Part shown: positions 1,050 to 64,000 of the stretch, one piece after another
How the letters are laid out: each line of letters begins with the position of its first letter
How positions within the stretch are numbered: the stretch's first letter is position 1
DNA from: a virus
Taxonomy: Duplodnaviria > Heunggongvirae > Uroviricota > Caudoviricetes
Length of the DNA stretch: 64,000 bases
Virus record (IMG/VR): IMGVR_UViG_3300035492_000044
Location: 46,179-110,178 of that record
Reading direction: 5' to 3' (one strand)
The notes under the pieces: model-generated
What the model saw: only the letters and a program-made list of their open reading frames with translations
Database searches by the model: none
What the model was told of the DNA's origin: nothing
Translations under genes and position numbers: made by a program

Positions 1050-1105
1050 GTGTTATGATGGGAGAGTTCGCAAGAGCTCTCCCATTTTATTTAGTGAGGA
1101 ATACC

Positions 1106-1963
1106 ATGCAACGAATAGTTATCGATGGCAACTGGCTAGGCATGAGAAACTTCCATGCTGCTGGTAAGATCCAGGATCGTAGTAAACTGGCCATCTCTAT
1201 CATGCAGTCCCTGTTGAAGATTATCCGGACAGATGAATATCGATCCCAGATTATTGTAGCATGGGACGGTGGTTCTTATCGGTATCGTGGATACCAAGAG
1301 GACTACAAAGAGGGTCGTGAGTATGACGAGGCATATAATTGTCTCTGGGAAGTACTGGCAACTCTACACGAACATCTACCTAAGATTGGCATCCACTCCA
1401 TTAGATGTAAGGGTGTTGAAGCAGATGATCTTGGGTACTATTACGGATGGCGTGCAGTTGAAGAGAATGTGTTCACTCTTCTTACTGCCATCGACCGTGA
1501 CTGGCTCATCTCCATAAATGAGAAGACATCGGTATTCCGTCCTGCTATCAATAAAGCACCTGAAGAGCTGGTTACTCACCAGAACATCGTTGAGAAGTTC
1601 CCTATCCAACACTTCTCCGAGTTCCTTATCTATAAGGCTATCTTCGGAGACGGTTCCGATAATATTCCAGGGGTAACTACTGGTGTTAATATTAACGAAG
1701 CTGTGTGCAAGTATAAGACAGGGCAACTCGGAGCTGATATTGTCGAGAAGATCGACAAGAACATCAACCTCATGCGACTTAATCACATTGTTACGGATAC
1801 AGAAGTCCATGAGATGATCAAAGAGTGTGAGAGTAAAATGGTACTTAATGTGCCTATCAGGGACCCTCTCACTGCTATTTGTGGCACCTTCCCTGAGTAC
1901 TTTAATGGTGTTGTTGGTAAATACCATCGTCTTCGCAAGTCAGAACTGATCGAGAGACTTTAG
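1106..1963 (+). CDS. 5'-3' exonuclease / flap endonuclease (T4 RNase H / PolI 5'-exo family)
   Basis: 'IVIDGNWLGMRNFHA', 'GVEADDL' and 'KAIFGDGSDNIPGV' match FEN/53EXO motifs. RBS 'gagga' before the ATG at 1106. Confidence 0.85.
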   Translation: MQRIVIDGNWLGMRNFHAAGKIQDRSKLAISIMQSLLKIIRTDEYRSQIIVAWDGGSYRYRGYQEDYKEGREYDEAYNCLWEVLATLHEHLPKIGIHSIRCKGVEADDLGYYYGWRAVEENVFTLLTAIDRDWLISINEKTSVFRPAINKAPEELVTHQNIVEKFPIQHFSEFLIYKAIFGDGSDNIPGVTTGVNINEAVCKYKTGQLGADIVEKIDKNINLMRLNHIVTDTEVHEMIKECESKMVLNVPIRDPLTAICGTFPEYFNGVVGKYHRLRKSELIERL

Positions 1964-17451: not shown

Positions 17452-18456
17452 ATGAGAAATAAGCCTGCAGACATACCTTATTGTGGGGTAGATAGAGCCA
17501 AGATTCTATCAGCACGCCCAATAATTAATGCTGATGTTCTCAGAATGTACGTGTCGTGGATCAAGCAGAGAGCTCACGTATACTACATGAAAGAGATTGT
17601 CGGAGAGCCTGGTCCATGGACCACTGATCCGATTCTTAGTAAGTACAAGTTCACCAATATCCGGCGAGAACTGGATCGGGAGACTAAGTGGCTTATTGAT
17701 AATGTGATCAACAGTGATAAGCTGTCTATCCTGGATAAGGCACTCAATTGTGCATTATTCCGGTGCATCAATACTGGGCAGTACTTCCAGGAAGTCTGGC
17801 ATGGTCCACTACGCCTTAGTAATATGAAGGATTTCGATTTCAATCATCTTAATGATATGGAACGAGATTCGGAATATTCTGGACCTCTGCAGTCTAATGC
17901 GTACTTCCTTTCTCAGATGAGACGAGTGGCTAACGACCTATGCAAGAGGCAGAATGCTAGTCATCTAGCATACAGCAATACTGCTCTAGCGTACTTCATA
18001 TGGTTCCATCGCCGGACTATTGAAGATGCATTAGCAGCTGATACTCCATCTAAGGCTACGATTCTTCTGGAGACTATCCCAGGATTCGGTAAGTTCATGT
18101 CATACCAAGTGTGGGTAGACTGGACTTACATGGAAGACTACGAGTTTAGTGAAAATGAGTTCGTACTATCTGGACCAGGATGTGACCTAGGCCTGTCGTA
18201 TCTATTCAAAGACCAGGATGGCATGTCTCCAGAAGAGACTCTATTCTGGATGAGAGACAATCTAGTTAAAGTCTGCAGAGACCTTGAAATAGATTTTGAT
18301 CCTGGAGTGATTCAGAGCTACTTACCACCAGATAAACGTAACTTTGGTGTTATGCAGCACGAAAATGGTCTATGTGAGCTAAGCAAGTATTACCGTCTTC
18401 ATACAGGTGAACGTATGAGGGCAAGATATTATGCCCCTGGTACTGATAGTAAATAA
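17452..18456 (+). CDS. hypothetical protein
   Basis: ORF preceded by class-B motif 17377 and RBS. Confidence 0.4.
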   Translation: MRNKPADIPYCGVDRAKILSARPIINADVLRMYVSWIKQRAHVYYMKEIVGEPGPWTTDPILSKYKFTNIRRELDRETKWLIDNVINSDKLSILDKALNCALFRCINTGQYFQEVWHGPLRLSNMKDFDFNHLNDMERDSEYSGPLQSNAYFLSQMRRVANDLCKRQNASHLAYSNTALAYFIWFHRRTIEDALAADTPSKATILLETIPGFGKFMSYQVWVDWTYMEDYEFSENEFVLSGPGCDLGLSYLFKDQDGMSPEETLFWMRDNLVKVCRDLEIDFDPGVIQSYLPPDKRNFGVMQHENGLCELSKYYRLHTGERMRARYYAPGTDSK

Positions 18457-37046: not shown

Positions 37047-37050
37047 TTAT

Positions 37051-38917: not shown

Positions 38918-39625
38918 ATGAAGTGTACGCCTATGGTACTGACACTACCTTGGAAGTTGTACTGTGCTGGCGCTATACCAGCACTTAATACAGTGCAGCC
39001 TACAATCTATTCTTGCCTCGAACTGGATGAGTCCACAGAGGATGCGCACTTGAGTAGATTGTGGGAAGTACTGGAGATAATCATGACCAGAGAAGATTTA
39101 ATAAATCTATCCAAGATACCTCCTTCAAATATATCAGTAGCAAAGTCTCTTGAAGCTAGAGGTTATCCATATTATGGTAACCTAAAATCTTCATATCCGA
39201 TTCATTGGGCCAGCTTCTCTGCTATGCACGGAAGAGTTAGAGATTTTGGCCTTGATTGTGATTTTCCTAGAAATGTGGATGGATTTATTGATTTTATCCT
39301 TTATGTCGGACCTGTTCCTGGAGATATGATTAGGCCAACTCTTGGTAGATCAGATCATTCAATTGGGTACTTAAAGGGTAATTTTAAGTGGCAGGAGTCC
39401 AGTGATAATACATCGGAGTCTGCTACAAGAAACAAGACTGTAGTCAAGATTCAAGAGTGTCGTTTAAATAGGTTGGAAGACCTAGTAAGTAGTCTAGGGG
39501 ATAAAGTTGAAATAGACTCCTTATTTACGACCTCTCACTTTAGATATAAGAAGGATTTGTACAGGCTACTTAGAAGTAGGGGATATAAAATATCTTCTGA
39601 CTATAAAGTAGCTAGTAAAGTTTAA
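38918..39625 (+). CDS. HNH homing endonuclease (paralog 1)
   Basis: 'LGRSDHSIGYLKGNFKWQ' resembles the HNH 'RIDNxxGYxxxNxRW' motif; AT-rich codon usage differs from the neighbours; embedded between tRNAs. Confidence 0.5.
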   Translation: MKCTPMVLTLPWKLYCAGAIPALNTVQPTIYSCLELDESTEDAHLSRLWEVLEIIMTREDLINLSKIPPSNISVAKSLEARGYPYYGNLKSSYPIHWASFSAMHGRVRDFGLDCDFPRNVDGFIDFILYVGPVPGDMIRPTLGRSDHSIGYLKGNFKWQESSDNTSESATRNKTVVKIQECRLNRLEDLVSSLGDKVEIDSLFTTSHFRYKKDLYRLLRSRGYKISSDYKVASKV

Positions 39626-39626: not shown

Positions 39627-39716
39627 GGAGAGTTGGCCGAGTGGTTTAAGGCACCTGACTTGAAATCAGACGGATCAGCAATGGTCCCCAGGGTTCGAAT
39701 CCCTGGCTCTCCACCA
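39627..39716 (+). tRNA. tRNA-Ser (anticodon TGA), type II
   Basis: Acceptor GGAGAG../..CTCTCC, long variable arm, loop CTTGAAA, GGTTCGAATCC T-arm, CCA. Confidence 0.7.
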
Positions 39717-40045: not shown

Positions 40046-40585
40046 ATGAACATACCTGAAATAAAATATGATACCGAGTACCTAATAAAAATAGCTTTCC
40101 ATAATTTTGATTTATGGAGCCATCACGAGCAAATGGCCGTTAAGTCTATGGAAGCTAGAGGTATTCCATGTTATGGTTTATTACCTAAAATGTTTCCGAT
40201 TCATCGGAACCGTTTTAGAAATATGCATAATAGAATAGACGAACAGTGTTTAGAGACTTCGTTTAAAAGAGATTTAGAAGGTTTTGCTAAATTTGTGGAA
40301 TATCTTGGACCAGTTCCTACTGAAATGAAAGTCCCGTCTTTAGGAAGAATCGATCATTCTAAAGGTTATGTAATAGGCAACTTTACATGGCAGGAACTTA
40401 GAGATAATATAGAAGAAATGGCCAATAGAACCAAGTCTTCAGATAATAAGTTCTGGGTAAACAGCCCAGGATGCACAGGTTATAGATGGTATAACGACGG
40501 ACAGACTGAATTCTTTCTGAGAGAAAATAATCCTTTAATTGAAGACGCTGGTCTAGTTAGAGGTCGGTTTTCTAATCGACGTTAA
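40046..40585 (+). CDS. HNH homing endonuclease (paralog 2)
   Basis: 'SLGRIDHSKGYVIGNFTWQ' HNH motif; clear paralogy to 38918-39625 ('EARGIPCYG', 'LGPVPTEMKVPSLGR'). Confidence 0.55.
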   Translation: MNIPEIKYDTEYLIKIAFHNFDLWSHHEQMAVKSMEARGIPCYGLLPKMFPIHRNRFRNMHNRIDEQCLETSFKRDLEGFAKFVEYLGPVPTEMKVPSLGRIDHSKGYVIGNFTWQELRDNIEEMANRTKSSDNKFWVNSPGCTGYRWYNDGQTEFFLRENNPLIEDAGLVRGRFSNRR

Positions 40586-41888: not shown

Positions 41889-41966
41889 GGGCCTCTAGCA
41901 TAACTGGTAAATGCGTCCGGCTCATAACCGGAGGACAGATCGGTTCGAATCCGACGGGGCCCACCA
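41889..41966 (+). tRNA. tRNA-Met/Ile2 (anticodon CAT)
   Basis: Acceptor GGGCCTC/GGGGCCC, stem TCCGG/CCGGA with loop CTCATAA, GGTTCGAATCC T-arm, CCA. G1-C72 pair means it is not an initiator. Confidence 0.75.
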
Positions 41967-42688: not shown

Positions 42689-42880
42689 ATGAACGGTGAG
42701 ACTCTGGTACAGAAGTACCGTAAAGCTATCGCCAGTTATTATGCAGAGGTTGAGAAGGTAGACCGGTGCCGTCGTCTCAACCTCCGTCATAAGGACAAGC
42801 GTGACCTTATTAAGGTCAAGGTAGCTAAACTCAAGAAGCAACTGGATCAACAAGCTAAGGGTGTGGTAATCAAACCATGA
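42689..42880 (+). CDS. small basic protein
   Basis: ORF translationally coupled to the dUTPase gene. Confidence 0.35.
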   Translation: MNGETLVQKYRKAIASYYAEVEKVDRCRRLNLRHKDKRDLIKVKVAKLKKQLDQQAKGVVIKP

Positions 42881-43581
42881 ATGAAGCACAACTACGTACA
42901 ATGCTAGGTCTGCAATATGACCTGAACAAGGCCATCTTCCCAGACTTCCTGGAACGTAAGCTACCGTACTATCGAGCTACCTGGATCGAAGCAGGTGAGC
43001 TGATGGACCACGTAGGTTACAAGTGGTGGAAGAAGCGTAATGATGACCTGAGTCAGGCTCGCCTGGAACTGGTTGACATGTGGCACTTCATCCTCAGTGA
43101 ACTGATGGTCGGTGCTTATGTACTGATCAAGACCACTGATCGTGACCGCATCATCGAGACTGCTATCGATATGGTGCTCGATGACGTTACCTCTGAGATG
43201 GGTGTCATTGAGGGTGTCGATGTACTCGACCTGATCGAGCAGTTCACCTGTAATCTCCTCCAGACTCGTCTTGGTCAGGGAGCTAACTTCTGCAGTGACA
43301 TCAGTATGTTCCGTCAACTGTGCCTGACTCTGGGCCTGACTGATGAGCAGCTGTTCCTGCAGTATATCGGCAAGAATACCCTGAATCACTTCCGTCAGCA
43401 ACATGGGTACAAAGAAGGTACCTATCGGAAGAATACCTGGGGTATGTCGTCCAATCAGGAAGACAATGAATTCCTGACCGACGTCCTGAATGCATATCAG
43501 GAACAGCTGCTGAGCTCCAATCCGGAAGAGGTCTCGGAGAAGGTATATGACCTGCTCCGGATCAACTATCCGAAGATGTAA
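42877..43581 (+). CDS. All-alpha (dimeric-type) dUTPase/dCTPase, T4 gp56-like NTP pyrophosphatase
   Basis: 'YYRATWIEAGELMDHVGYKWWKK' and 'ARLELVDMWHFILS' are hallmark motifs of dimeric dUTPase/dCTPase. Confidence 0.7.
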   Translation: MNEAQLRTMLGLQYDLNKAIFPDFLERKLPYYRATWIEAGELMDHVGYKWWKKRNDDLSQARLELVDMWHFILSELMVGAYVLIKTTDRDRIIETAIDMVLDDVTSEMGVIEGVDVLDLIEQFTCNLLQTRLGQGANFCSDISMFRQLCLTLGLTDEQLFLQYIGKNTLNHFRQQHGYKEGTYRKNTWGMSSNQEDNEFLTDVLNAYQEQLLSSNPEEVSEKVYDLLRINYPKM

Positions 43582-43590
43582 GTGAAGATA

Positions 43591-43626
43591 GGGTAGATTC
43601 CTCACGGGGTCTACCCTATTTATTTA
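43591..43626 (+). terminator. rho-independent terminator (GGGTAGA..TCTACCC + TATTTATTT)
   Basis: Hairpin + T-run after the dUTPase gene, immediately before class-B motif 43638. Confidence 0.65.
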
Positions 43627-43697
43627 CCTATTTATTCCGACGTTTATGTGCTTCGAAACCCTGTTAGGGTGTAGGTTGTTCAACGTGAGGTATAACC

Positions 43698-44438
43698 ATG
43701 TCAAGTAAGAAACACTCAGTAGTGTTTACTGGACCTCAGGGATCTGGTAAGACTACTCTCGCACAAGCCTGGAGTCAGCACTACGATGTACCGTATGCTG
43801 GTATTGAGACTCGCAAGTTCCTACCACCAGGTATCAAGAGCCATCTGGACGTACTGAGTCTCGCAGTAAACGAGCCTGACTCTGGTATCTCATTCCAGGA
43901 GAATCTCATCCGCAAGAGAGCCGAACTATTCAAGGATCTCCGGGATACTAAGAAAGTGTATACTAGTGATCGAGCTGTCATTGATAGCTTCGTCTACTAC
44001 GCTATGCACAACTCGATGTTCTCCTCTGCTGAGAAGAGTAAGGAACTCGAAGAGATCACTCGTGAGGCTCTGTGCTACCCAGATATCACGATCATGCTCT
44101 ACCCATCGTCCATCCAGATCGCTGATGACGGTGTTCGTATTCACAGTAGCCCATACTACTCTGCATTCGGCGCTACTATGAACTACGTAATGAATGCCAT
44201 GCTGCGAGAGAAGACATCTCCTGATCTTCCTCCTGTCCAGATTACTATCAGTGACAAGCTGACTGTTCAAGTGGCAGTAACGACAGAAGGTAGTCTGGTA
44301 GCATTCTTCCTGGAGAATAATGGATTCTCTAGCATGGAAGATCGTATTGCTGGAGTCGAGTGGCTTACTCACTTCAAGAGTAATCCGAAGGCTACCTATG
44401 GTAACCACTATCCTGTCAATGTTCAGACTGTTCACTGA
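43698..44438 (+). CDS. Deoxynucleoside/deoxynucleotide kinase-like P-loop kinase
   Basis: Walker A 'FTGPQGSGKTTLA' and dNK-type 'TSDRAVIDSFVYY' (ERS-like) motif. Confidence 0.6.
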   Translation: MSSKKHSVVFTGPQGSGKTTLAQAWSQHYDVPYAGIETRKFLPPGIKSHLDVLSLAVNEPDSGISFQENLIRKRAELFKDLRDTKKVYTSDRAVIDSFVYYAMHNSMFSSAEKSKELEEITREALCYPDITIMLYPSSIQIADDGVRIHSSPYYSAFGATMNYVMNAMLREKTSPDLPPVQITISDKLTVQVAVTTEGSLVAFFLENNGFSSMEDRIAGVEWLTHFKSNPKATYGNHYPVNVQTVH

Positions 44439-44449
44439 GAGTTCATCCC

Positions 44450-45514
44450 ATGCACGTAGTAAAGGCACGTGGCATTAATGATGCCGTCAAGCAACTGATC
44501 CATGATGTTCACCATTTCGGTACTGAGACTAAGTCCGATAAGGGGACAGTGAAGGAAATCAATCGTCTACTACTGGAGATCGAGCGGCCTGTCAATCGAT
44601 ATCTGTGCATCCCTGGACGTAAGAACAACATCTACGCCATGATCGCCGAGACCATGTGGGTACTGTCAGGCACCAATCTGATTGAACCATTGCTGTCGGC
44701 AGTTCTCCCAAGAGCTAAGGACTTTAGTGATGATGGAGTTTCCTGGAGAGCTGGCTACGGTCCTCGACTCTATAAGGATGGGCAGCTCGATACTGCTATT
44801 AATCGTCTTAGGAAGTCACCTGCTACTCGCCAGTCTGTTATCTCGATTTACGATCCTGCTCTTGATACCGATAGTGCAATTCACGCGCAGCTTGGTGTAT
44901 CTGCTAGTAAGGATGTACCTTGCAACAATATGCTGTATCTCTATACTGACCCTGATAATCGCAATAGACTCAATCTGAGTGTGATTCAGCGCAGTGGTGA
45001 TGCACTATGGGGCTTTGGTAGCATCAATATCTTCGAGTGGTCGTTCCTCCAGGAAGTGGTGGCATCTGTTCTGGGTATGGATGTGGGTACTTACGCCCAC
45101 TACTGCAACAATACCCATATCTACTACGACAAGCCGGTAGTGCTCCGCCAAGTCCAGGATATCGTCGCCAATACTGATGCCGTATCGCCGAATATGGCTA
45201 CTGGAATGCAGATGGACATTGGTGTCATTCACAGTGCTCACGATATCCGCATGTTCTTCAATCTGGTATGCCAGGTTATGGGACGAGTGGCTATCAAAGA
45301 GCTCGACCGTGAAGCAGGCATGTCTGCTATTCGTAATGTCTTCGAGACTTACCGAGTAGCTCGCACTACTAACAAGCTGTGGCACTACTGCGAACTGGTA
45401 GTAGCTCAGTTGACTCCGGAAGAAGAGGAACAGATCGATCTCTCTGGGTATTCTCAGGACTTGATCAATGCTGTATGCTGCAGCACGTTCACTAAGTTCA
45501 AGTACATTATTTAA
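44450..45514 (+). CDS. Thymidylate synthase family enzyme (ThyA or dUMP hydroxymethylase) with ~80 aa C-terminal extension
   Basis: Catalytic Cys 'DVPCNNMLYLY' (vs 'APCHAFFQFYV'), 'IQRSGDALWGFGSINIFEWSF' (vs '[20 protein letters not shown]'). Asn at the pyrimidine-discriminating position suggests a uracil substrate. Confidence 0.85.
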   Translation: MHVVKARGINDAVKQLIHDVHHFGTETKSDKGTVKEINRLLLEIERPVNRYLCIPGRKNNIYAMIAETMWVLSGTNLIEPLLSAVLPRAKDFSDDGVSWRAGYGPRLYKDGQLDTAINRLRKSPATRQSVISIYDPALDTDSAIHAQLGVSASKDVPCNNMLYLYTDPDNRNRLNLSVIQRSGDALWGFGSINIFEWSFLQEVVASVLGMDVGTYAHYCNNTHIYYDKPVVLRQVQDIVANTDAVSPNMATGMQMDIGVIHSAHDIRMFFNLVCQVMGRVAIKELDREAGMSAIRNVFETYRVARTTNKLWHYCELVVAQLTPEEEEQIDLSGYSQDLINAVCCSTFTKFKYII

Positions 45515-45526
45515 GGTAGGTTCGTT

Positions 45527-46192
45527 ATGAGCATTGCTCAGTTAGTTACTTTCATGAAGGAAGTTGATGGTCTCCGATTCACTGGTCGCTGGAATGGCCA
45601 CTTTATGTTCGATCGGAGTAATGTTGCTGAGCACAGCTTCCGGGTAGCATGGTGGGCTAGTCTCATCACCGACACGTACACCACTACCGATCGTGGTGAT
45701 AATACTCCTCTCTGCACAGTGAACGAGCATGAGCTCTACTCCTGTGTCCAGCGTACCATCCTGTCTCACGACATGGCTGAGAAGTACACTGGTGATGTTC
45801 GTCATGACATCAAGCGTGAGTACCCCACTCTGAAGGCAGTGCTGGATGATGTGGAAGAGGATCTCCTCAATCGTGTCATGCCATTCCGGAATAAGGTCAC
45901 TTATAGTGACGAAGTCCGTAAGATCACCAAGGCTATCTACAAGGGAGCTGACATTCTCGACTTCACTCTGGAGGCATTGAAAGAGATGAAGCGTGGTAAT
46001 GAGATCGTCGACTTCCCAGTAGCAGTAGTCCGTGGTCTGGTTCATATCCAGAGCCTTCCAGTCGAGGATGTTTCCTACATCTGCGAGGCTATGTTCTCCT
46101 ACATGCTGAACTCGTACGGTTATGAGTACAATAAACTCCGTGACCAGTACGCCAGTCAAGCTCAGTTCCACACTGATGGCGTTAGTGCCTAA
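45527..46192 (+). CDS. HD-domain phosphohydrolase (YfbR-like 5'-deoxynucleotidase)
   Basis: 'VAEHSFRVA' (H) and 'ILSHDMAE' (HD) motifs. Confidence 0.65.
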   Translation: MSIAQLVTFMKEVDGLRFTGRWNGHFMFDRSNVAEHSFRVAWWASLITDTYTTTDRGDNTPLCTVNEHELYSCVQRTILSHDMAEKYTGDVRHDIKREYPTLKAVLDDVEEDLLNRVMPFRNKVTYSDEVRKITKAIYKGADILDFTLEALKEMKRGNEIVDFPVAVVRGLVHIQSLPVEDVSYICEAMFSYMLNSYGYEYNKLRDQYASQAQFHTDGVSA

Positions 46193-47186: not shown

Positions 47187-47903
47187 ATGAGTAAGATACT
47201 TGAGATAGCTCTTAAGTCAAAGATATGCAGACCATCGAAGAAGGTGGTGGATGACTACAAGCCATGGGGCATCTCCATCACCCAAACGATGAATTGCATG
47301 AGGTTCAACTGGATTAACTACAATCGACCTAAGGAGATTGATGGGTACGAATTCGTCTACATGAAGGATGACCCTTACAACTACTCTGGTTCGCTGATTG
47401 TAGGTATGGGGTACTGTGTTGAGAATATTGTGGCAGAGTTCCTCAAGGAGTCTGGCATCTTCATCTCCACTCAGGATAAGGTCCGGGACCTAGGTAACAA
47501 GTGGAGAGGTAACCTCGACTACCTAGTCAATCTCAAGCCATGGGGTTATGGTATTGGTGACTGTAAGGGTATGTCAGAGAGGAAGTTCCAGGGATTCCTG
47601 GAGAGACCACTCAAAGAGGTTATGTTCGACTACTACGTCCAGTTGACCTCTTACATCCACATCATGGATGTACCGTACGGATTCATCGTTGGAGTAAACC
47701 GAAGTAATGGCAAGGTAGAAGTACGTGTCATTACTAAGGAAGAGACCAAGGATGACTTCCTGTTCTATCGTGGTCGAGTCAAGCAGACCCTAGATGCTCA
47801 GAGTGTGTACGATCTCCCTATCGAGGAAGATAAGTGCCATGGGTGCAGTAATGTACCTTTCTGTCATCGAGGTAAGCCTGAATTGATTGCGACGTTCACG
47901 TAA
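47187..47903 (+). CDS. Cas4/RecB-like PD-(D/E)xK nuclease with Cys cluster
   Basis: 'LDYLVN..IGDCKG' (D..DxK) and 'YYVQLTSY' (QxxxY). One N-terminal Cys plus C-terminal 'CHGCSNVPFCH' (Fe-S-like). Confidence 0.5.
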   Translation: MSKILEIALKSKICRPSKKVVDDYKPWGISITQTMNCMRFNWINYNRPKEIDGYEFVYMKDDPYNYSGSLIVGMGYCVENIVAEFLKESGIFISTQDKVRDLGNKWRGNLDYLVNLKPWGYGIGDCKGMSERKFQGFLERPLKEVMFDYYVQLTSYIHIMDVPYGFIVGVNRSNGKVEVRVITKEETKDDFLFYRGRVKQTLDAQSVYDLPIEEDKCHGCSNVPFCHRGKPELIATFT

Positions 47904-49842: not shown

Positions 49843-50385
49843 ATGTCTATGTTGAGCTACCGTCGTATTATGGAACTGGTTGAGGCTGGTTCTATCCTGG
49901 TCGATAAGAAGTATGTTCAGAGTGCTAGTGTGGATGTTCACTTGAGTGAGAACCTCAAGCTGGAGAGTCCATTCGCTGCACTACTGGACCCCATGAATCC
50001 ATCGAATACTCCCCATCTGCGTGATATCAAGATCCACAAGAGTGGGTACATGCTACGTCCTCGCCAGATCTTCCTAGGTGTTACTGTGGAGCGATTCAAT
50101 CTCCCCAATAACATCGTAGGTGAGTTCACCATGAAGTCATCGATCGCTCGTTGCTTCCTGAATCACCTGCACAGTGATCACATGGATCCAGGCTTCAATG
50201 GTCACTTGACTCTGGAGATGGTGAACATGAATGAACAGCATTCTATTCGCCTGAGTGCAGGTATGCCTATTGGCCAGATCAAGTTCTACGAAGTAGAGCC
50301 GGTACCTGACCACATCCTGTACTCCAATGTGGGCCAGTACAACAATCAGTCTGAGATGCCTGTAGCTAGTAAGGGCGCTCGATAG
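49843..50385 (+). CDS. dcd: dCTP deaminase (Dcd/dUTPase trimeric superfamily)
   Basis: 'SSIARCFLNHLHSDHMDPGFNGHLTLEMVN' and 'AGMPIGQIKF' match Dcd signature regions. Confidence 0.75.
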   Translation: MSMLSYRRIMELVEAGSILVDKKYVQSASVDVHLSENLKLESPFAALLDPMNPSNTPHLRDIKIHKSGYMLRPRQIFLGVTVERFNLPNNIVGEFTMKSSIARCFLNHLHSDHMDPGFNGHLTLEMVNMNEQHSIRLSAGMPIGQIKFYEVEPVPDHILYSNVGQYNNQSEMPVASKGAR

Positions 50386-52525: not shown

Positions 52526-55500
52526 ATGAAGTTAATCACTGAACCATCGAAGAGTAAGTATGCTGTCGTAGGTATCGGTCTGGGGCAGAGTGAGGGTGCA
52601 TTCTCCACTGATGCTGGCGACATGATGCGAGCTATCTTCCTCTCCCAGACCGTCTTCCCGCACTATGTAGAACTCCGTAAGGATAACTTCGATGACGAAG
52701 AAATTCCTGATGAGCTAAAGTCTGCTGTTTATTCGTATCTGGCAGACAACGGTATCGAGAAAGTCATCCTACTGGGTTCTCAGACTGCACGGCAGCTAGC
52801 ACCTAGTCTTACTGCCAAGTCCACTATCGCTAAGCTCAACAGTATGCCATTCCTAGGCGTACAAGAGTTTACTGCACAGGCAGCAGTGATCCACCATCCT
52901 CGATTCGTAGTGCATGCACTGAAGAATAACCCTGACTCCGAGATCGAGTATTCCAATCGTATTCAAGGTCTACTGAAGCACACACCTCAAGCCTACAATA
53001 TCCACATCAATAGTATCTCGATCGATGGACTGATATCGGATATCCTACCATGGCTACTCAATAACTATCGAGGCAAGATAGGGGTAGACTTCGAGACTAA
53101 TGGAGAGGAGATCTGGCATAAGGACTTCAAGATCACCCTATTCAGTCTATCGATGAAGGATGACGATGGATCCCACATTACATGGTGGATACCTGTAACG
53201 GGTAATGAGACCGAATGGGAATTAGAACAGCTGCGCTCATTCTTTTTGGGAACTAAGGATAGGCTGTGGGCATTCAACTGTCCATTCGAGATGAAGGTAT
53301 TCTGGCGATGGCTAGGAGTATTTATCGGGATCAACGACTCGATGGTACTGATCACGATGGAGTCCTCGCGTAGTAGCTTGAAGGACGCAGTACGTCGTCA
53401 CCTAGCATCAGACTTCTGGGAAGCTGAAGTACACGAGCAGCTGAACGCATTCTCAGCTACCTTTAAGCAGATGACCAAGATGATTAAGGGTCAACCTGAA
53501 CTCATCGAGACTCTTCGTAATGGTGGATATCCTGCCATGGAAGAGATTCAGCACAACGAGAGTCTGCAATTCATCCGTGAAAACCACGAGGATATTCTCG
53601 AGGATTACGGTATTGAAGAACTAGCACGATGCATTACTGGATACCCGTATCACTGGGCGGCAGTTCCCCACGAGATTCTGGGACCATACTGCTGTCGTGA
53701 CTCGGCGTACGGTGTAATCCTAGCTGAGAAGTTCGAAGACAAGTTCCGTGATGGATATCCGGTGTATATCCGCCATCCATGGCTTGCAACAGTGTTCGAA
53801 TCGTATGGAATCACCTACGATCGTGATGTTTCCTATGAGGAACAGAACAAATTCACTCAAGAAATGATCGCGTCGCTGAACCTAATCATCCAAGACTTGG
53901 ACATTCCGATTGAGTCAAAGATGAAGGCTAACGACATCCTGTCATGGAACCTTCCGCATACGATCGTGTCATATACCGAGAAGACCAAGAAGGAGAAGCG
54001 TAGGGTCATTAAGGATGAAGGTGATCGTCACGAAGAACTGAAGGGTATCTTCAATCCTGCGAGTAACCATAGTACTACTCGGGATATGTTCTGGAACCAC
54101 TATCTTGATGAAAGTATCGAGATGGCAACTATTCTGTGGGCATTCGTAACCGAATTGCGTAATCGGGATATCTGGCCTGAAGTATTGAAGAACTTGAGTA
54201 CCTTCAGTACCGAGGAAGAGTTCCTTAGGTCCAAGCCTGCTGATGAAATGATGGATTCCCTTATTGGGCTAATGCAGCAGCATCAGGGCAAAATATTCGG
54301 TATCGATATTCAGAACTGTCTGGTCGAGGCTACGAACAACTACAAGGAGCTTTATACTGGTCGATTTGCACGTGATGTAATGGAAGCTCAGTACAAGGTC
54401 CACACTTACTTCTTCGGCGTCAATGTCGACGATAAGTCAACGTGGAATCCTAAGTTCGAGCTACTGTTCAACCTGCATAAGTGGAAGAAGCTAGCTAAGA
54501 CGGTAAGTACTTACATCACGGGTTCTATCGGCCGTGACTCAGTCTACCTGTCTAAGTACGATCCCAAGGACATTACTAAACCGCCAATTCGGATAGCTAA
54601 GGCTGACCTCCTGCCTCTGGATTACCAATTGAAGGAGGATGAGTGCTGGGTATTCAACGTAGGGTTCAACTCTCTATCGGCGATTACTCATCGTTGGTCA
54701 TCGGGAGCACATACGATCCCTTCGGGATCATCAGTAAGACGCATGCTCATTCCGCGTAATCCTGACGGTGTGTGGTTCCATGCTGACTTCAGTCAGGCTG
54801 AACTAGTTATCCTATCGTTCTTCAGTCAAGACCCGAAGATGCTTCAGGTATTCTTGTCTGGTGGTGACATGCACCGTTATGTTGCTAGCCAGGTATTCAA
54901 GAAGCCCGAAGATGAGGTTACTAGTGAGGAGCGACGTGGAGCTAAGGCAGTATCGTTCGGTATTATTTACGGTAAGTCCATTGAATCTACTGCGGTAGAG
55001 ATCTTCGGTGGTGACGTAGGTCGTACTCAAGCGATGTTCGATGCATTCTTCCTCCAGTTCCCTGGTATTAAGGTCTGGATGGAGGAGCGTTACAAGGAGG
55101 TCGATACTCACGGTAAGGTAACCAACATGTTTGGTGCACTTATCCAGGTTGAGACTGACGCGCCAGGTAACGCTAAGTACCGTCAAGGCTGCAACTATCC
55201 GATTCAGTCATCAAGTAGCATGCTTGCTGGTACTTCCATGTGGAACTTGCATGAGCACTGCCAGACGATTGATCTGACTCAGCTGTCTCACAACTTCACC
55301 CATGACGCCCTCGATTCTGAGTGCGAAGTAAGAAGGATATTCGACTACACCAAAGCTCTGCGATTCAAGATGCAGGACGAGTTGTATGAGCAGCTTGGTG
55401 CACCTATGCGTATTGACCACGAGGTAGGTATTAACTGCTTCCACATCTGCGGTATTGGAGATATCGAGGAGACCCCTGACGGGATCAAATTCGAGCTTGA

Positions 55501-55702
55501 AGGCACTCAAGAGGCAGTTGATCTTCTTCTGGACAAGATGAATAAGCATAGTCCATGGGTAGTTGACAGTACCGAGATCGTTAAGACTAAGGAACTGTAC
55601 ACTAGCTGGGATGAGATGTTCACTACCAAGTCAGCTTACAAGAGCTACTGGGGTGTTACTCAGACCAAGATCGTTGCACATATTCAACTGAAGAATAAGT
55701 GA
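52526..55702 (+). CDS. Family A DNA polymerase with 3'-5' exonuclease and an N-terminal UDG-like domain
   Basis: Motif A 'HADFSQAELVIL', motif B 'RRGAKAVSFGIIYGKS', motif C 'THDALDSE', Exo I 'GVDFETNG'. N-terminal 'VVGIGLGQSEGAFSTDAGDMMRAIF ... VIHHPRF' loosely resembles family-4 UDG motifs. Confidence 0.9.
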   Translation: MKLITEPSKSKYAVVGIGLGQSEGAFSTDAGDMMRAIFLSQTVFPHYVELRKDNFDDEEIPDELKSAVYSYLADNGIEKVILLGSQTARQLAPSLTAKSTIAKLNSMPFLGVQEFTAQAAVIHHPRFVVHALKNNPDSEIEYSNRIQGLLKHTPQAYNIHINSISIDGLISDILPWLLNNYRGKIGVDFETNGEEIWHKDFKITLFSLSMKDDDGSHITWWIPVTGNETEWELEQLRSFFLGTKDRLWAFNCPFEMKVFWRWLGVFIGINDSMVLITMESSRSSLKDAVRRHLASDFWEAEVHEQLNAFSATFKQMTKMIKGQPELIETLRNGGYPAMEEIQHNESLQFIRENHEDILEDYGIEELARCITGYPYHWAAVPHEILGPYCCRDSAYGVILAEKFEDKFRDGYPVYIRHPWLATVFESYGITYDRDVSYEEQNKFTQEMIASLNLIIQDLDIPIESKMKANDILSWNLPHTIVSYTEKTKKEKRRVIKDEGDRHEELKGIFNPASNHSTTRDMFWNHYLDESIEMATILWAFVTELRNRDIWPEVLKNLSTFSTEEEFLRSKPADEMMDSLIGLMQQHQGKIFGIDIQNCLVEATNNYKELYTGRFARDVMEAQYKVHTYFFGVNVDDKSTWNPKFELLFNLHKWKKLAKTVSTYITGSIGRDSVYLSKYDPKDITKPPIRIAKADLLPLDYQLKEDECWVFNVGFNSLSAITHRWSSGAHTIPSGSSVRRMLIPRNPDGVWFHADFSQAELVILSFFSQDPKMLQVFLSGGDMHRYVASQVFKKPEDEVTSEERRGAKAVSFGIIYGKSIESTAVEIFGGDVGRTQAMFDAFFLQFPGIKVWMEERYKEVDTHGKVTNMFGALIQVETDAPGNAKYRQGCNYPIQSSSSMLAGTSMWNLHEHCQTIDLTQLSHNFTHDALDSECEVRRIFDYTKALRFKMQDELYEQLGAPMRIDHEVGINCFHICGIGDIEETPDGIKFELEGTQEAVDLLLDKMNKHSPWVVDSTEIVKTKELYTSWDEMFTTKSAYKSYWGVTQTKIVAHIQLKNK

Positions 55703-57024: not shown

Positions 57025-57486
57025 ATGGAAGATATTGGTCTACTTAGGCGAAAATATAAGCAGAAAATAATCAATGCCCAAAAGGATGGTTTTAATGTCT
57101 ACCTGACATTCGAAGAGTATTTAGCCAAGGCAGAAGAAGCTGGGATTAAACATCCTGATGAGATATCTCCTAGTGGGTTTCATTTATCTCGAGTTAATGA
57201 CGAGGGAGATTACAGAAATGATAACTGCCGATTCTTACCGTGTAAGGAGAATCATAGAGAGAAGAAACACTTACGTGGGGTTAATCACCCATGTTATGGG
57301 AAGCCTGGTAATTTACTAGGTAAGAAGGTAGTGAGGAGTTGTAATAGAAAGCTCTCTGACGATATGGTAGTTGCTATCTTTAATGACACCAGAAAAGTAG
57401 GTGAAATATGCAAAGAGTATAATGTAGTTGTCTCTACTGTCAATAAGATAAAGAGACGAGAAATTTATAGCTATCTTACAAGTTAG
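57025..57486 (+). CDS. putative HNH homing endonuclease
   Basis: 'GFHLSRVNDEGDYRNDNCRF' HNH-like; AT-rich codons differ from neighbours; free-standing between large conserved genes. Confidence 0.45.
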   Translation: MEDIGLLRRKYKQKIINAQKDGFNVYLTFEEYLAKAEEAGIKHPDEISPSGFHLSRVNDEGDYRNDNCRFLPCKENHREKKHLRGVNHPCYGKPGNLLGKKVVRSCNRKLSDDMVVAIFNDTRKVGEICKEYNVVVSTVNKIKRREIYSYLTS

Positions 57487-58239: not shown

Positions 58240-59694
58240 ATGCGTCCTGTACTTAAGATCAAACTTATGTCAGACAGCAATATTAAGTCTGTCAGTTCTG
58301 GGGAAATTGAGTCCTACCGTCTGTACAACTTCAAGTACAAGACACCTCGCCCAGTACCGGGTGGTCTATTCTGCGAGAAGATCTTTGGTCCTATCCAGGA
58401 TTACACCTGTGCCTGCGGTATCCGTCACTCTATTGCCTTGAAAGTATGCGAGACCTGCGGTGTGCCTATTCTTAGTGCACGTGAACGCCGTAATCGTATG
58501 GGGCATATCAATTGTCGCCTCCCCTACCTAAATCCAATTGCCTCTGACCTAGTCGGCGGTATCTTCGGAGTTAGTGGTAAGGCTCTCCTCGATGTGGCAG
58601 TAGGTACCTCGCGGTACTACATAGAGGAGGCAGCTGGTTCAGGTCCATTGATCAGTTCGAGCGGTGTGCGTTATCGCATTCAAATCGTAGGTAAGGAAGA
58701 TCCTGAGTGGGAGAACTCCGATTACTCGATTTACTCGCTTCTCTCTGACCTGATTGACCTGGACATTAGTGGTGAGGAGACACTCTCCAAGCACAAAAAT
58801 CCTGATGTTCGTCGGTATTATGAAAACGGGTTCACTTCGGTCCTGAATTTCTTCAATACCTCAGTTCTTGTTCCGCCACCTCTCCACCGAGATATCTCCA
58901 TCTCGAATGGTGAGATTTCGTATCACCCCACTAATATCCTCTACCTTCGACTCATTCGAGTAGCTCATCGATTCCAGGTTATTATGGAATCGGAGAACGA
59001 GGATATGTTGGTTCTACTCCGTGAAGAAGCTCGAGTTCTCCAGCATCTGGTGAATTCAGTTTACACTGAAGGAGCTAAGGACCATCGCGGTAACGCTATC
59101 CCAGCCATTATGGACAAACTGGGAGGTAAAGAGGGTCTGTTTCGTGGTAATATGCTAGGCAAGCGTATTGACTACTCCGGACGTTCCTCGATTACTACAG
59201 GTCCCGATCTCCCGATTGATACCTGCGCTGTACCGTTCAAAATGATGTACACTCTGCTTGAACCCCATATCCTCGGAAGGCTAGTTACTCTGGCAGAAGA
59301 GCGATTCAATGGGGAGGCTAATCCGTACACTGTGGCTTCTCGTTGGTATAAGAGGCAGACCACTGAGGCGGTTGAAGCCTGCTATGACCTTGCCAAGGAG
59401 GCTATTGTAATCCTTAACCGAGCTCCATCGCTCCATCGCTATTCGGTAATGGGATTTAAGGTAGTTCTTCACTCTGGTAAGAGTATCCGGATACCTCCGC
59501 TAATCTGCTCCCCATTCAACGCAGACCATGATGGCGACACCATGGCGATTCACCTGCCGTTGTCTAAGCAGGCACTAGCTGAGTTCCCTCTGTATTCGGT
59601 TCAGCATAATCTGATGAGTTCTATCGATTATGACACCCCGAATATGTCTCCGTCCCACGAGGCTGTAGTGGGTCTGTACCAGCTCACCCTGTGA
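58240..59694 (+). CDS. Multisubunit RNA polymerase beta' subunit, N-terminal half
   Basis: Zn-binding 'DYTCACGIRHS..CETCGV', 'ARERRNRMGHINCRLPYLNPI' (vs 'RRERMGHIELASPTAHIW'), catalytic 'NADHDGDTMAIHLPLS' (vs 'NADFDGDQMAVHVPLT'). Confidence 0.9.
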   Translation: MRPVLKIKLMSDSNIKSVSSGEIESYRLYNFKYKTPRPVPGGLFCEKIFGPIQDYTCACGIRHSIALKVCETCGVPILSARERRNRMGHINCRLPYLNPIASDLVGGIFGVSGKALLDVAVGTSRYYIEEAAGSGPLISSSGVRYRIQIVGKEDPEWENSDYSIYSLLSDLIDLDISGEETLSKHKNPDVRRYYENGFTSVLNFFNTSVLVPPPLHRDISISNGEISYHPTNILYLRLIRVAHRFQVIMESENEDMLVLLREEARVLQHLVNSVYTEGAKDHRGNAIPAIMDKLGGKEGLFRGNMLGKRIDYSGRSSITTGPDLPIDTCAVPFKMMYTLLEPHILGRLVTLAEERFNGEANPYTVASRWYKRQTTEAVEACYDLAKEAIVILNRAPSLHRYSVMGFKVVLHSGKSIRIPPLICSPFNADHDGDTMAIHLPLSKQALAEFPLYSVQHNLMSSIDYDTPNMSPSHEAVVGLYQLTL

Positions 59695-59775
59695 TTTAGA
59701 AGGATTTAGAATGTAATCTGACTAACAATAAGTTAGAATTACTTAGTCTTGTTAATTAATCTGAGGTAATCCATA

Positions 59776-61299
59776 ATGCTGGTAAATAACGTTCATTATT
59801 TCAACAATCCTCAAGCAATTCACGAAGCGTATGAGAACGGGTTGATTACTTACCATACCGAGGTTAAGTATAAGTTCCGGGACACTACTGAGTGGGTTGA
59901 CATTACTTATGGGCGATTCCTGATCTGGGAATTCACTGGGTACCTCCCAGAGGGTGCCCTTAGTAAGAAGGGTGTGAAGAATCTCGTTATCCACATTAAC
60001 CGGGAGTACAGCCCTGAAGTAGCTGTTAAGAAGATGAAACAGCTACAAGATCTGGCTTTCAAGATCGCCACTGAGAAGGGAATTACCCTTGGGATGGACG
60101 ACTTCCACCCAATGCCTGGTACTAACGAGATCATGGCAGAAGAGCAGGTCCGTATCTCGGCTCTTCCTATCGAAGAGCGAGCTGAAGAGTGGGATACCGT
60201 TATTAACGGCCAGGTAGATCGCTGGATTAACGAGGTCGATCGAAATAACCCTCTCTACGCCATGTACCAGTCAGGTGCTCGAGTAACTCCCTCCCAGATA
60301 CGCCAGATGGTTGTTGGTAAGGGTCTTCTCACTAAGATGAACGGTGAGATTAACCCGGATGCAGTTACTCAGTCTCTGGCAACAGGACTTAGTGTGTACA
60401 ATTACTTCATGACATGTGGGCCTGCTCGGAGAGGTCTGGCTAACAACTTCTTCGTAGTTCCTGCCTCTGGATACTTCGCACGGCAGCTGGTTAATGCTGC
60501 GCGTGACCTTACCATCGTAGAAGAGGACTGCGGTACTCGAGAGGGGGTAGAGGTCAAGTCGAAATACGCAGTAGGTCGCTACCTTGCAGGTACATCCGAA
60601 CTCTGGACTAAGGACAGCAAGACTGACATGCCTTACCTCAAGGTGAGGAGTCCTCTTACCTGCTCCTCTGTTCTAGGTGGACTCTGCGCTAAGTGCTGTG
60701 GACAGGATCCTGCCACTAACGAGGATTGGAGAGTAGGTTTCGGTATGGGGACAGCGTCGGCTCAGCATATCTCGGAACCAGCTACTCAGGCCGGTCTACG
60801 TGGTAAGCATACCTCAGGTTCGGTTACTCTGGCGGATTACCGTAACTCGGTTGATAACGTACTTCCGAACATCATCAGGGCTTTCGGTGGTATCGGTACT
60901 CAGTTCGTAACTACTGAGGGAGCTACTTCGAAGACCCTATACGACTTCAGCAAGACTGAGAAGGATCCTATTACTGCAGCTGAGAAGCTCTGCCAGCACA
61001 TTAAGGACCTGTTCGTGGAGGGTGGTCTGGGTGTAGCTAGCATCCACATCGAGGTAATTATTCGCTCCTGTATTGAGCAGGTAATTAAGAAAGATGGTGA
61101 AGTAGGTCTTCGGTCTCATGGAGATGAGGGCCGAATCAAGTGCCTCAACGTGAGTCAGGTTCCTCTTAATTACCCGAGCTGGCTGAAGTCTATCAGCTTC
61201 GGCTACACCTCCAGCCGACTCCGTAAGGCAGTATGCCGGATGGAGAAGACTTACGGCGTAATGACGGAGCAGATTATGACAACTGCGTTCCAACACTAA
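59776..61299 (+). CDS. Multisubunit RNA polymerase beta' subunit, C-terminal half
   Basis: 'VPASGYFARQLVNAARDLTIVEEDCGT' (vs '[26 protein letters not shown]') and trigger-loop 'SEPATQAGLRGKHTSG' (vs 'GEPGTQLTMRTFHIGG'). Confidence 0.85.
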   Translation: MLVNNVHYFNNPQAIHEAYENGLITYHTEVKYKFRDTTEWVDITYGRFLIWEFTGYLPEGALSKKGVKNLVIHINREYSPEVAVKKMKQLQDLAFKIATEKGITLGMDDFHPMPGTNEIMAEEQVRISALPIEERAEEWDTVINGQVDRWINEVDRNNPLYAMYQSGARVTPSQIRQMVVGKGLLTKMNGEINPDAVTQSLATGLSVYNYFMTCGPARRGLANNFFVVPASGYFARQLVNAARDLTIVEEDCGTREGVEVKSKYAVGRYLAGTSELWTKDSKTDMPYLKVRSPLTCSSVLGGLCAKCCGQDPATNEDWRVGFGMGTASAQHISEPATQAGLRGKHTSGSVTLADYRNSVDNVLPNIIRAFGGIGTQFVTTEGATSKTLYDFSKTEKDPITAAEKLCQHIKDLFVEGGLGVASIHIEVIIRSCIEQVIKKDGEVGLRSHGDEGRIKCLNVSQVPLNYPSWLKSISFGYTSSRLRKAVCRMEKTYGVMTEQIMTTAFQH

Positions 61300-62418: not shown

Positions 62419-62799
62419 ATGGTTGCTGCAACTACTACCCCGAAGAAGAAAAACACCACTAAGCCGATGGGTGCTAAGGCCCGGTCTTTCCTGAATCAGG
62501 TGGCTGAGACCGTAGAGTCCAAGTCCAAGACAGCGGCTACTGAGGAGCTCTTCACCGGCCAGAAGCAGGAGGAGGCTCCTGTAGCTCCGGTAGCTGCTCC
62601 GTCGGTTACTGAGGAAATGGCCAAGAAAGGTCTTCAGTGCTGGGCCTGGATCGAAGAGCACAGTAAGTACTACCGTGCTCGAATCACTGAAGTGGTGGAA
62701 CCTGGTAAGTACAACGTGATCTACCGTGACTTCAAGGCAACTGTCGGCCTGGATGACCTCCAGCTGGAGAAGCCGAGTAATCTCAAGGCTAAGGCCTGA
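62419..62799 (+). CDS. small basic protein (Lys-rich N-terminus)
   Basis: After class-A motif 62336; 'TTTPKKKNTTKPMGAKAR'. Confidence 0.45.
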   Translation: MVAATTTPKKKNTTKPMGAKARSFLNQVAETVESKSKTAATEELFTGQKQEEAPVAPVAAPSVTEEMAKKGLQCWAWIEEHSKYYRARITEVVEPGKYNVIYRDFKATVGLDDLQLEKPSNLKAKA

Positions 62800-62811
62800 T
62801 TCAAATCCCTA

Positions 62812-62846
62812 GGGTGAGTGTACTTTGTGTACTCACCCTATTTTTG
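62812..62846 (+). terminator. rho-independent terminator (GGGTGAGTGTAC..GTACTCACCC + TATTTTTG)
   Basis: Hairpin + T-run. Confidence 0.7.
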
Positions 62847-62857
62847 TGCTAAATTAA

Positions 62858-63738
62858 TGAGGTTGAAAATGAAGTGCCGTAGAATTATTTCTCATCTCCT
62901 TGCTGAAGCTCGTCGTCTGGAGGATGAGGGAGATAAATGGCGTAGTATCGCCCATCGTAAGGGTGCTTCTGCCATTAGTCAAGTTCTTAAGTCGAACGAG
63001 GAAGTACCTAAGGATTTTGACTGGATGAGCATAAGTGGAATAGGTCCAAGTCTTAATTCCAAGATTCAAGCAGTATTGGCCGGAGAAGTGAGTACAAATA
63101 CATCTTGGATGGACTGGATGAGTAAGGAAGATAGAGCCGAAATTCTTAAATACTTTGACTGTCAGAGTGATCACGAATTTCTACTCGAGATTAGAAAATC
63201 TCCGTACTATACCCACGTGTCCGATGCCGTACTAAAGCACTACGGGCTATTTAGGATCCCAGAATTATTATACCCGTTGACTCAGGTACTAGAGACCTAC
63301 TTGGGAGACTTGGTAATCCAAGTTACTGGAGGTATACGTAGGAAGAACAATGTGGGGCACGATATTGATTACGTAGCTGCGTGCTCACATGAGGAGTTGA
63401 TGAAGAGGATTGACAAGATAAATAATTCCTCTAAAGTGCAATTGACTCCAATTAATCAGGGTGAGAGCTTCCCTCGATTTATAGCTGATTTCCGAGGACA
63501 TAAAATCAATGTGGACTTCCGTCTCTGTGAACCCAGATTCTTCGCATCCATGGTCCTTTATTTAACTGGGTCTAAGGAGCATAATATTCGGCTTCGTTCG
63601 ATAGCCAAGAAGAAGGGATTCCTTCTTAATGAGTATGGACTTACCAGAATAGGTGCAGAATCCCCTATGGAAATATGGTCTGAGATGGGAATATTTGAGG
63701 TACTTGGTGAGCCTTATATAAAACCAGAGTACCGCTGA
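62858..63738 (+). CDS. Family X DNA polymerase (Pol beta-like, minimal)
   Basis: HhH 'ISGIGPSLNSKI', 'GGIRRKNNVGHDIDYV' (vs Pol beta 'GSFRRGAESSGDMDVLL'), 'YLTGSKEHNIRLRSIAKKKGFLLNEYGL' (vs '[28 protein letters not shown]'). Confidence 0.8.
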
Positions 63739-63825: not shown

Positions 63826-64000
63826 ATGGAAAACGTTGACTTCAATAAGATTAAAGACAAAATCCGTAAGCTGCTGGCTGTAGCTAATGGCAAGGCTAAT
63901 GAGAACGAGTCGCTGATTGCAGCTCGTCAAGCTAACAAGCTAATGGAGAAGTACAACCTCTCGATGGCTGACGTGATTGTCAAGGATCTGGAGAAGGACG
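63826..64000 (+). CDS. DUF2786-like protein (5' partial, runs off the window)
   Basis: 'KIRKLLAVANGKANENESLIAARQANKLMEKYNLS' after class-A motif 63742. Confidence 0.4.
   Translation, partial: MENVDFNKIKDKIRKLLAVANGKANENESLIAARQANKLMEKYNLSMADVIVKDLEKD

Follow-up and report, generated by a model that had tools for sequence, protein, structure and literature searches.

A divergent stand-alone family X DNA polymerase, probably a short-gap repair enzyme, in a phage with genes for thymine hypermodification

A 64,000-nt stretch of DNA from a virus of the Caudoviricetes (IMG/VR record IMGVR_UViG_3300035492_000044, positions 46,179 to 110,178; hereafter the window) encodes, near its 3′ end, a Pol beta-like DNA polymerase of family X (PolX). 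All genes of the window lie on the + strand, to which every position below refers; the window is part of a genome, and an identical Logan contig reaches 850 bp past it. The longest open frame of the PolX gene spans 62818..63738 and contains two in-frame ATG codons, at 62857 (giving 293 aa) and at 62869 (289 aa). Since a Shine-Dalgarno-like GAGG, read from the sequence at 62860..62863, stands 5 nt upstream of the second ATG, and since an independent gene call on the identical Logan contig also starts the protein there (P0001, 289 aa), we consider 62869 the most likely start, so that the coding sequence occupies 62869..63738 (289 aa and a TGA stop). The sequence-only reading of this DNA had placed the gene at 62858-63738; the end coincides exactly with the TGA stop, while the start misses the first ATG by one base and precedes the likeliest start by 11. 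The GTG at 62818 was ruled out as a start because it sits inside a stable hairpin resembling an intrinsic terminator (62810..62847), which a terminator scan resolved into a 14-bp stem with a 3-nt loop (62810-62840) followed by the T-run TTTTTGTG. The RNA fold of this element has an energy of -19.1 kcal/mol (z = -4.2), and none of 200 shuffled sequences was equally stable. The hairpin closes the preceding gene just ahead of PolX. The 126-aa product of that gene (62419-62799) begins with a basic stretch of low complexity and ends in a Tudor-like domain (Pfam TUDOR, E 1.6e-4, just under the cut-off). The strong terminator hairpin parts the gene from PolX, and no homologue of it was found near PolX in the related loci compared. 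Directly downstream of PolX lies a DUF2786/DUF7168 gene (63827-64000) that continues beyond the end of the window (L001, 8675-9397).

Database searches identified the protein as a member of family X. The Pfam thumb model DNA_pol_B_thumb (PF14791) matched residues 233-293 of the 293-aa form with an E of 7.5e-20 (71 bits against a cut-off of 25), and the 8-kDa model HHH_8 matched below its gathering score (E 6.4e-4). A phmmer search against all PDB chains returned 104 matches, the best 60 of which were all family X polymerases; the matches included Leishmania Pol beta (9e-12), Thermus PolX (5e-11), Pol lambda (2e-9, aligned with residues 13-286 of PolX), the PolX of African swine fever virus (ASFV; 1e-6), Pol beta and Pol mu. 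When 1.84 billion representatives were scanned exhaustively with HMMER, 4064 proteins matched at E<=1e-3, and the best non-self representative was only 32% identical (E 3e-24). The best 150 of these 4064 homologues measure 156-627 aa, and from their length and matched region many of them seem to be stand-alone PolX cores of near 250-330 aa or PolX-PHP proteins of about 570 aa. A word-indexed search recovered only the identical Logan protein and two distant matches, and none of the PHROGs families matched. The strong family X matches, together with identities that do not exceed 32%, mark the protein as a clear yet very divergent PolX. The motifs quoted in the sequence-only reading (a helix-hairpin-helix (HhH), GxxRRxxxxxxDxD, YxTGSxxxN and GxxLNEYGL) are all present: the hairpin reads S-G57-I-G59-P, the nucleotidyltransferase motif G154-G-I-R-R-KNNVGH-D165-I-D167 (GGIRRKNNVGHDID), the thumb motif Y231-L-T-G-S-KEH-N239 (YLTGSKEHN) and the C-terminal motif G250-FL-LNEYGL (GFLLNEYGL).

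The protein can be divided into four parts, as can human Pol beta and the Pol lambda core, with which it also shares its active-site residues. An 8-kDa lyase-like N-terminal domain (aa 1-72; 62869..63084) carries the first HhH, G57-I-G59. It is followed by a linker and reduced fingers (aa 73-125; 63085..63243), delimited by the alignment, the lack of a match to the Pfam fingers model PF10391 and low model confidence, and then by the nucleotidyltransferase palm (aa 126-220; 63244..63528), with G154-G155-x-R157-R158, D165, D167 and D216, and the thumb or nascent-base-pair-binding subdomain (aa 221-289; 63529..63735), with Y231, L232, T233, G234, S235, N239, R243 and LNEYGL. An AlphaFold2 (AF2) model built on an alignment of 36 homologues reached a mean predicted local distance difference test score (pLDDT) of 91.7, with values below 50 only at residues 76-83, which are predicted to be disordered. 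Foldseek matched the model to Pol lambda and Pol beta at E ~1e-14 over about 315-325 columns; the TM-score of ~0.5 reflects differences at the inter-domain hinges, and palm and thumb together superpose on Pol beta at 1.6 A. In this model the ~125 N-terminal residues are predicted to fold as the lyase-like domain and the reduced fingers.

Compared with Pol beta and the Pol lambda core, the phage enzyme is about 45 residues shorter and has lost the primer-binding second HhH hairpin of the fingers. Pol beta ‘SGIGPSAARKF’ has no counterpart in the alignment, and the G-I-G-P hairpin and first helix of this HhH are replaced by a short low-confidence linker, the downstream helices being kept. Reduced fingers are common to the PolX proteins of related phages, those of Ab1-TPeters and IME392 being almost fingerless, and ASFV PolX also lacks this subdomain; the missing hairpin therefore does not exclude the protein from family X. 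At the other end the protein stops at the thumb, and Pfam found no PHP domain in its 289 aa. This distinguishes it from the bacterial and archaeal enzymes (Thermus thermophilus, Bacillus subtilis, Deinococcus), whose thumb motif YLTGSKxHNIRLR...LNEYG is the most similar to that of the phage protein and which carry a C-terminal PHP domain with 3'-5' exonuclease or AP-endonuclease activity. The BRCT domain of Pol lambda, found also in Pol mu and TdT, is absent too, as is any XRCC1 context. The description of the protein as a “minimal” PolX thus stands as regards PHP and BRCT and fails as regards the N-terminus: ASFV PolX (pO174L, 174 aa) has neither an 8-kDa domain nor fingers, whereas both are retained here, the fingers in reduced form.

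For a residue-level comparison, PolX was aligned with 150 homologues and with human Pol beta, whose sequence was checked at 21 landmark residues, all 21 of which fell at their published numbers. Loss of the catalytic aspartates on careful alignment would, according to the sequence-only reading, have refuted the identification, but all three are kept: D165 (codon 63361-63363), D167 (63367-63369) and D216 (63514-63516) correspond to Pol beta D190, D192 and D256. The arginine pair that binds the dNTP triphosphate is represented by R157 and R158 (Pol beta R182 and R183), the thumb motif by Y231, L232, T233, G234 and S235 (Y271, F272, T273, G274 and S275), and the minor-groove sensors by Y231, N239 and R243 (Y271, N279 and R283). 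In the N-terminal domain, K65 (codon 63061-63063) stands at the position of the 5'-deoxyribose phosphate (dRP)-lyase lysine, K72 in Pol beta and K312 in Pol lambda, and 92 homologues have a lysine there. In the phage enzyme, Pol beta Y39 is replaced by H (H29 of PolX), S180 by G, G189 by H, F272 by L and D276 by K; the changes at F272 and D276 are found in bacterial PolX as well.

Upstream of PolX, at 52526..55702, the window encodes a replicative family A DNA polymerase (PolA; 1058 aa; Pfam DNA_pol_A E 4e-44, phrog_17). It has no 5' nuclease domain, and the place of that domain is occupied by an extra N-terminal domain (about aa 1-160; 52526-53005) resembling a uracil-DNA glycosylase (UDG). 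Over 96-97% of its length, PolA is 36-39% identical to the PolA of phages RP13 and Ab1-TPeters; weaker matches were obtained with phiLo, LIS04, SP-15, YerA41 and Carin-5. Between PolA and PolX lies an RNA polymerase (RNAP) beta' subunit split over two adjacent genes (58240-61299), the first with Rpb1 domains 1-2 and the second with domains 3-5. This split subunit resembles those of the non-canonical multisubunit RNAPs of AR9/phiKZ-type phages; the homologous region of Ab1-TPeters is annotated as hypothetical proteins only. An HNH endonuclease gene (57025-57486) lies between the PolA and RNAP beta' genes. For PolA and RNAP beta' together, the closest phages are Ab1-TPeters (Acinetobacter), RP13 (Ralstonia), EP_H11 and IME392 (both E. 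coli) and the Rhizobium RHph_TM30 group. Judged by these genes, the phage belongs to the RP13-like/SP15-like group of thymine-hypermodified phages, of which the RP13-like part has been defined previously (PMC12686479). A 9-kb megablast query had no near-identical genome among 50,697 phage records, and an exact 40-mer from the end of the window was absent from viral, metagenome and genome collections.

The sequence-only reading had expected a genome with modified or uracil-derived bases, an expectation that the gene content of the window bears out. A 5-hydroxymethyldeoxyuridine (5-hmdU) DNA kinase is encoded at 17452..18456 (5-HMUDK; Pfam PF18723, E 6e-57); this enzyme is a hallmark of post-replicative thymidine hypermodification. 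Directly upstream of it, a block of sugar-nucleotide enzymes with a methyltransferase extends over 9173-17362, and 9173-18456 as a whole is probably a biosynthetic cassette for a sugar-bearing thymidine hypermodification. The block comprises a DegT aminotransferase, two NAD-dependent epimerase/dehydratases, a cytidylyltransferase-mannose-6-P-isomerase/cupin fusion and a SAM methyltransferase, and also holds three large ORFs without a family match. A run of nucleotide-pool genes, whose chemistry passes through dUTP and dUMP, occupies 42877..46192 and consists of a dUTPase_2 (42877-43581; Pfam E 5.5e-25), a kinase-like P-loop protein (43698-44438; Pfam), a thymidylate-synthase homologue (44450-45514; Pfam E 8e-18) and a YfbR-like 5'-nucleotidase (45527-46192; Pfam); a dCTP deaminase, which produces dUTP, follows at 49843..50385 (Pfam DCD, E 1.4e-28). 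From this gene set, the genome is very likely thymine-hypermodified via 5-hmdU.

Other replication and repair genes of the window are a FEN-like 5'-3' exonuclease (1055..1963; Pfam 5_3_exonuc_N, E 2e-16), possibly a partner for flap or dRP removal, an RNase H (27594-28418), a Cas4-like exonuclease (47187-47903), topoisomerase II subunits, ribonucleotide reductase, a primase-like Toprim protein and an XPD-like helicase. In addition, a single 925-aa ORF (1965-4742) fuses a Mre11-like metallophosphoesterase (aa 1-161) to a Rad50/SbcC-like ATPase, in which the match to the Rad50 zinc hook is weak and sub-threshold (E 0.001, 19.2 bits against a cut-off of 24.3); Mre11 and Rad50 are normally two separate subunits.

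PolX genes are as rare in phages as the sequence-only reading had stated. In tblastn searches of the 50,697 phage records, the protein described here found homologues in 13 and the PolX of YerA41 in 24, and, as noted above, no PHROG matches. The carriers were almost exactly the phages with the closest or related PolA/RNAP beta', so that across phages PolX co-occurs with the UDG-fused PolA lineage. The gene order PolA, RNAP beta', PolX is common to the window and Ab1-TPeters. The surroundings of PolX in RP13 include an NAD-dependent ligase, a DUF2786 gene and a dCMP deaminase; the RP13 homologue of the DUF2786 protein (38% identity) is encoded ~1 kb upstream of PolX, so that PolX and DUF2786 have remained neighbours even in distant relatives. 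In IME392 a ligase gene directly adjoins PolX. An IMG/VR search with an alignment of 6 PolX sequences yielded 28 PolX loci, one of which has a ligase within 8 kb.

PolX has already been annotated in YerA41, GN1, Carin-5, RP13, IME392 and Rhizobium phages; phage PolX genes were noted in 2022 (PMC9023294) and characterised in 2025 (bioRxiv 10.1101/2025.03.26.645540). The protein described here is a very divergent addition to this known set, from a phage absent from public phage collections. Like the PolX of YerA41 (gp158), RP13 (ORF24), Carin-5, IME392, EP_H11, Ab1-TPeters and RHph_TM30, it is a stand-alone core without PHP, these cores measuring about 240-305 aa. In the RP13-like/SP15-like phages, as here, the second fingers HhH is degenerate or absent, and PolX is accompanied by a PolA of >1000 aa whose N-terminus holds a UDG-like domain, by a multisubunit RNAP and by genes of the 5-hmdU pathway. 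Differences are found in the overall identity of their PolX proteins to this one (22-28%), in the glycine at its S180 position, in the lysine at its K72 position, where relatives have R or E, and in the ligase, which here is not adjacent to PolX. A further difference from RP13 is the clear 5-hmdU DNA kinase of the window, which is reported as undetected in RP13 (bioRxiv 10.1101/2025.03.26.645540).

What the enzyme might do is suggested by published biochemistry of the SP15-like phages (bioRxiv 10.1101/2025.03.26.645540). In SP15-like PolAs the N-terminal UDG is active: it removes dU from the template in front of the fork, leaving an apurinic/apyrimidinic (AP) site that the polymerase then bypasses. 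All phages with an SP15-like PolA but phiLo encode both PolX and a ligase. The PolX of YerA41 cuts AP or tetrahydrofuran (THF) sites leaving a 3'-OH. With the phage ligase it also fills gaps to a product that can be ligated, and it elutes together with PolA. With these activities and the co-encoded PolX and ligase of the group on its side, the base-excision-repair role proposed in the sequence-only reading is supported. We consider it probable that the protein is an active, template-directed, short-gap-filling PolX, most likely the repair polymerase of a phage base-excision pathway tied to the replication of hypermodified DNA. By analogy with YerA41, it may cleave AP sites, couple gap filling to ligation and form a complex with PolA.

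The pathway that we envisage begins in the nucleotide pool. 5-hmdUTP would be made from dCTP via dUTP and dUMP, by the dCTP deaminase, the dUTPase, the thymidylate-synthase homologue and the kinase. Because this route (dCTP deaminase to dUTP, dUTPase to dUMP, thymidylate-synthase variant to 5-hmdUMP) runs through uracil nucleotides, incorporation of dU would be an intrinsic hazard, and dU would tend to enter the phage DNA. Its excision, which in characterised relatives is carried out by the UDG domain fused to the replicative PolA, would leave abasic sites; PolA is the presumed source of AP sites and the presumed docking partner of PolX. PolX would then act on the abasic or dRP site, for which K65 may be used (the YerA41 activity is AP-endonuclease-like), and fill the one-nucleotide gap, and a ligase would seal the nick.

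Several observations weigh against this interpretation. The YerA41 PolX, from which the biochemistry is drawn, shares only 24% identity with the protein when the full MAFFT alignment is counted; tblastn aligned just the C-terminal half, with 33% identity. In the 64-kb window, itself part of a genome, we found no ligase (tblastn with the IME392 LigA; Pfam scans) and no stand-alone UDG or AP endonuclease. The equivalent of K72 is not kept in the phage relatives, being R in RP13 and E in Ab1-TPeters and IME392, which makes a lyase role of K65 uncertain. G155 occupies the position of Pol beta S180, where 145 of 151 sequences have Ser and 4 have Gly, and either this change or the loss of the HhH2 hairpin might reduce activity or DNA affinity. 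On the PolA side, motif A of the N-terminal domain reads GIGLG where family-4 UDGs, and phiLo, have GEAPG; only the His-Pro motif B (HHPRF; HPSF in phiLo) looks canonical. This N-terminus is collinear with the family-4-like UDG domain of phiLo, the match being weak (hhalign E 0.012), and phmmer and clade-profile searches with it against PDB gave no match. A homologue search with the domain also returned nothing, and a single-sequence AF2 model (pLDDT 38.7) was not used. Thus, of the earlier proposal of a PolA with a UDG-like N-terminus, the 1058-aa polymerase and its extra domain hold, the UDG-like nature of the domain is supported weakly, and the source of AP sites in this phage remains a presumption. 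GEAPG is also absent from the PolA N-terminus of the close relatives RP13, EP_H11 and Ab1-TPeters.

Part of these features could also be read jointly as a specialisation. In this unlikely scenario, PolX would be adapted to sugar-hypermodified 5-hmdU DNA, inserting 5-hmdUMP, rather than dTMP or dUMP, opposite A and thereby leaving a repair patch open to re-modification by the 5-hmdU DNA kinase, with a dRP/AP-lyase step of its own; the GIGLG domain of PolA may excise a base other than uracil (e.g. unmodified T or 5-hmU), and the pair would serve as quality control of modification completeness, not as simple uracil repair. The lack of the fingers HhH2 hairpin, the rare Ser-to-Gly change and a lyase lysine that is retained here but lost in the phage relatives form the basis of this idea.

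Three further explanations concern an enzyme outside base-excision repair or short of full activity. The lineage-specific co-occurrence of PolX and UDG-fused PolA is explained less well by each of them, be it the maturation of gaps at Okazaki fragments or nicks, the repair of breaks together with Mre11/Rad50 or a role as scaffold only. According to the first, which we regard as unlikely, PolX would be a general nick- or gap-maturation polymerase, acting on lagging-strand gaps or gaps in packaged DNA with the FEN-like exonuclease, RNase H and ligase after primer removal. PolX enzymes are generic short-gap fillers, the window encodes a separate FEN-like exonuclease (1055-1963) and RNase H (27594-28418) alongside a PolA that has no 5' nuclease domain, and UDG motif A of that PolA is non-canonical, all of which would fit such a role. 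However, replicative PolA enzymes normally fill Okazaki gaps unaided, PolX tracks the UDG-fused PolA lineage of thymine-hypermodifying phages and not other phages with split FEN/RNase H, and the 8-kDa lyase-like domain with its K72 equivalent points to recognition of gaps with a 5'-dRP or 5'-phosphate of the base-excision-repair type.

A catalytically weakened PolX, retained mainly as a DNA- or PolA-binding scaffold or as a lyase, is improbable. The changes S180 to G (4/151), G189 to H and Y39 to H, the lost HhH2 hairpin and the stable binding of PolA by the YerA41 homologue (bioRxiv 10.1101/2025.03.26.645540) are what it would draw on, but no change affects the three Asp that bind metal, the two Arg that bind the triphosphate or the Y/N/R sensors of the minor groove, the palm-thumb model superposes closely on Pol beta, and the position equivalent to G189, occupied here by H164, is naturally variable (K, R, S, N, H). 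Slightly less probable still is that PolX, like Pol lambda and Pol mu, processes or joins the ends of double-strand breaks, working with the Mre11/Rad50-like nuclease of the phage. The Mre11-Rad50-like fusion (1965-4742) and the Cas4-like exonuclease (47187-47903) would provide partners, and Pol lambda is among the best full-length matches; against this, the protein has neither a BRCT domain nor a Loop1-type insertion, its template and minor-groove checking residues are Pol beta-like, Ku and LigD homologues were not detected in the window, and the PolX of relatives adjoins an NAD-dependent ligase and not end-joining factors. With no BRCT or Loop1 in the protein and no Ku detected in the window, a PolX of the terminal-transferase or end-joining type was rejected as unlikely. 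Finally, membership of another nucleotidyltransferase class (MNT/toxin-antitoxin, CCA-adding/poly(A), cGAS/CD-NTase or alarmone synthetase) can be practically dismissed as already effectively refuted, even though a Pol beta-type palm is common to all these enzymes and Pfam did not report the PolX palm model itself for this protein.

A repair polymerase of this kind is not a new kind of biology, the system having been described between 2022 and 2025. The locus enlarges the small group of phage PolX enzymes by an independent, highly divergent one and further supports the rule that, in thymine-hypermodifying (RP13-like/SP15-like) phages, PolX accompanies a UDG-fused PolA. Moreover, the clear 5-hmdU DNA kinase, together with pool genes that lead from dCTP through dUTP and dUMP to 5-hmdUMP, makes the rationale for self-encoded repair of uracil and AP sites explicit. 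A compact PolX tolerating bulky major-groove modifications and its cognate PolA would be useful reagents for copying and sequencing hypermodified DNA, and the natural variants (S180G, HhH2 loss, the kept K72 equivalent) offer ready material for probing the structure and function of Pol beta.

Elsewhere in the window there are eight tRNA genes (Leu-taa, Arg-tct, Gly-tcc, Asn-gtt, Leu-tag, Thr-tgt, Ser-tga and Met-cat; 36060-38241, 39627-39716 and 41889-41966). Among them, at about 37807-38159, lies a permuted, two-piece tmRNA with the tag peptide ANDESFAPLALVA, which scored above gathering with two Rfam models, tmRNA_permuted (104 bits) and beta_tmRNA (86.6 bits). The match to the betaproteobacterial type hints at a betaproteobacterial host, like the Ralstonia of RP13. 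Two ORFs amid the tRNA genes (38918-39625 and 40046-40585) gave weak matches to phrog_8790 ‘restriction endonuclease’ (E 7e-4 and 1e-4) and may be paralogous homing-type endonucleases. Two genes, at 27055-27588 and 31112-31543, are candidates for anti-defence functions; their products are an anti-CBASS phosphodiesterase resembling Acb1 (E 3e-12) and a protein with a NADAR domain (E 1.4e-16). On an unrelated Logan contig, a homologue of the Acb1-like protein (50% identity) is encoded two genes, or ~0.6 kb, downstream of P0004, the closest relative of PolX.

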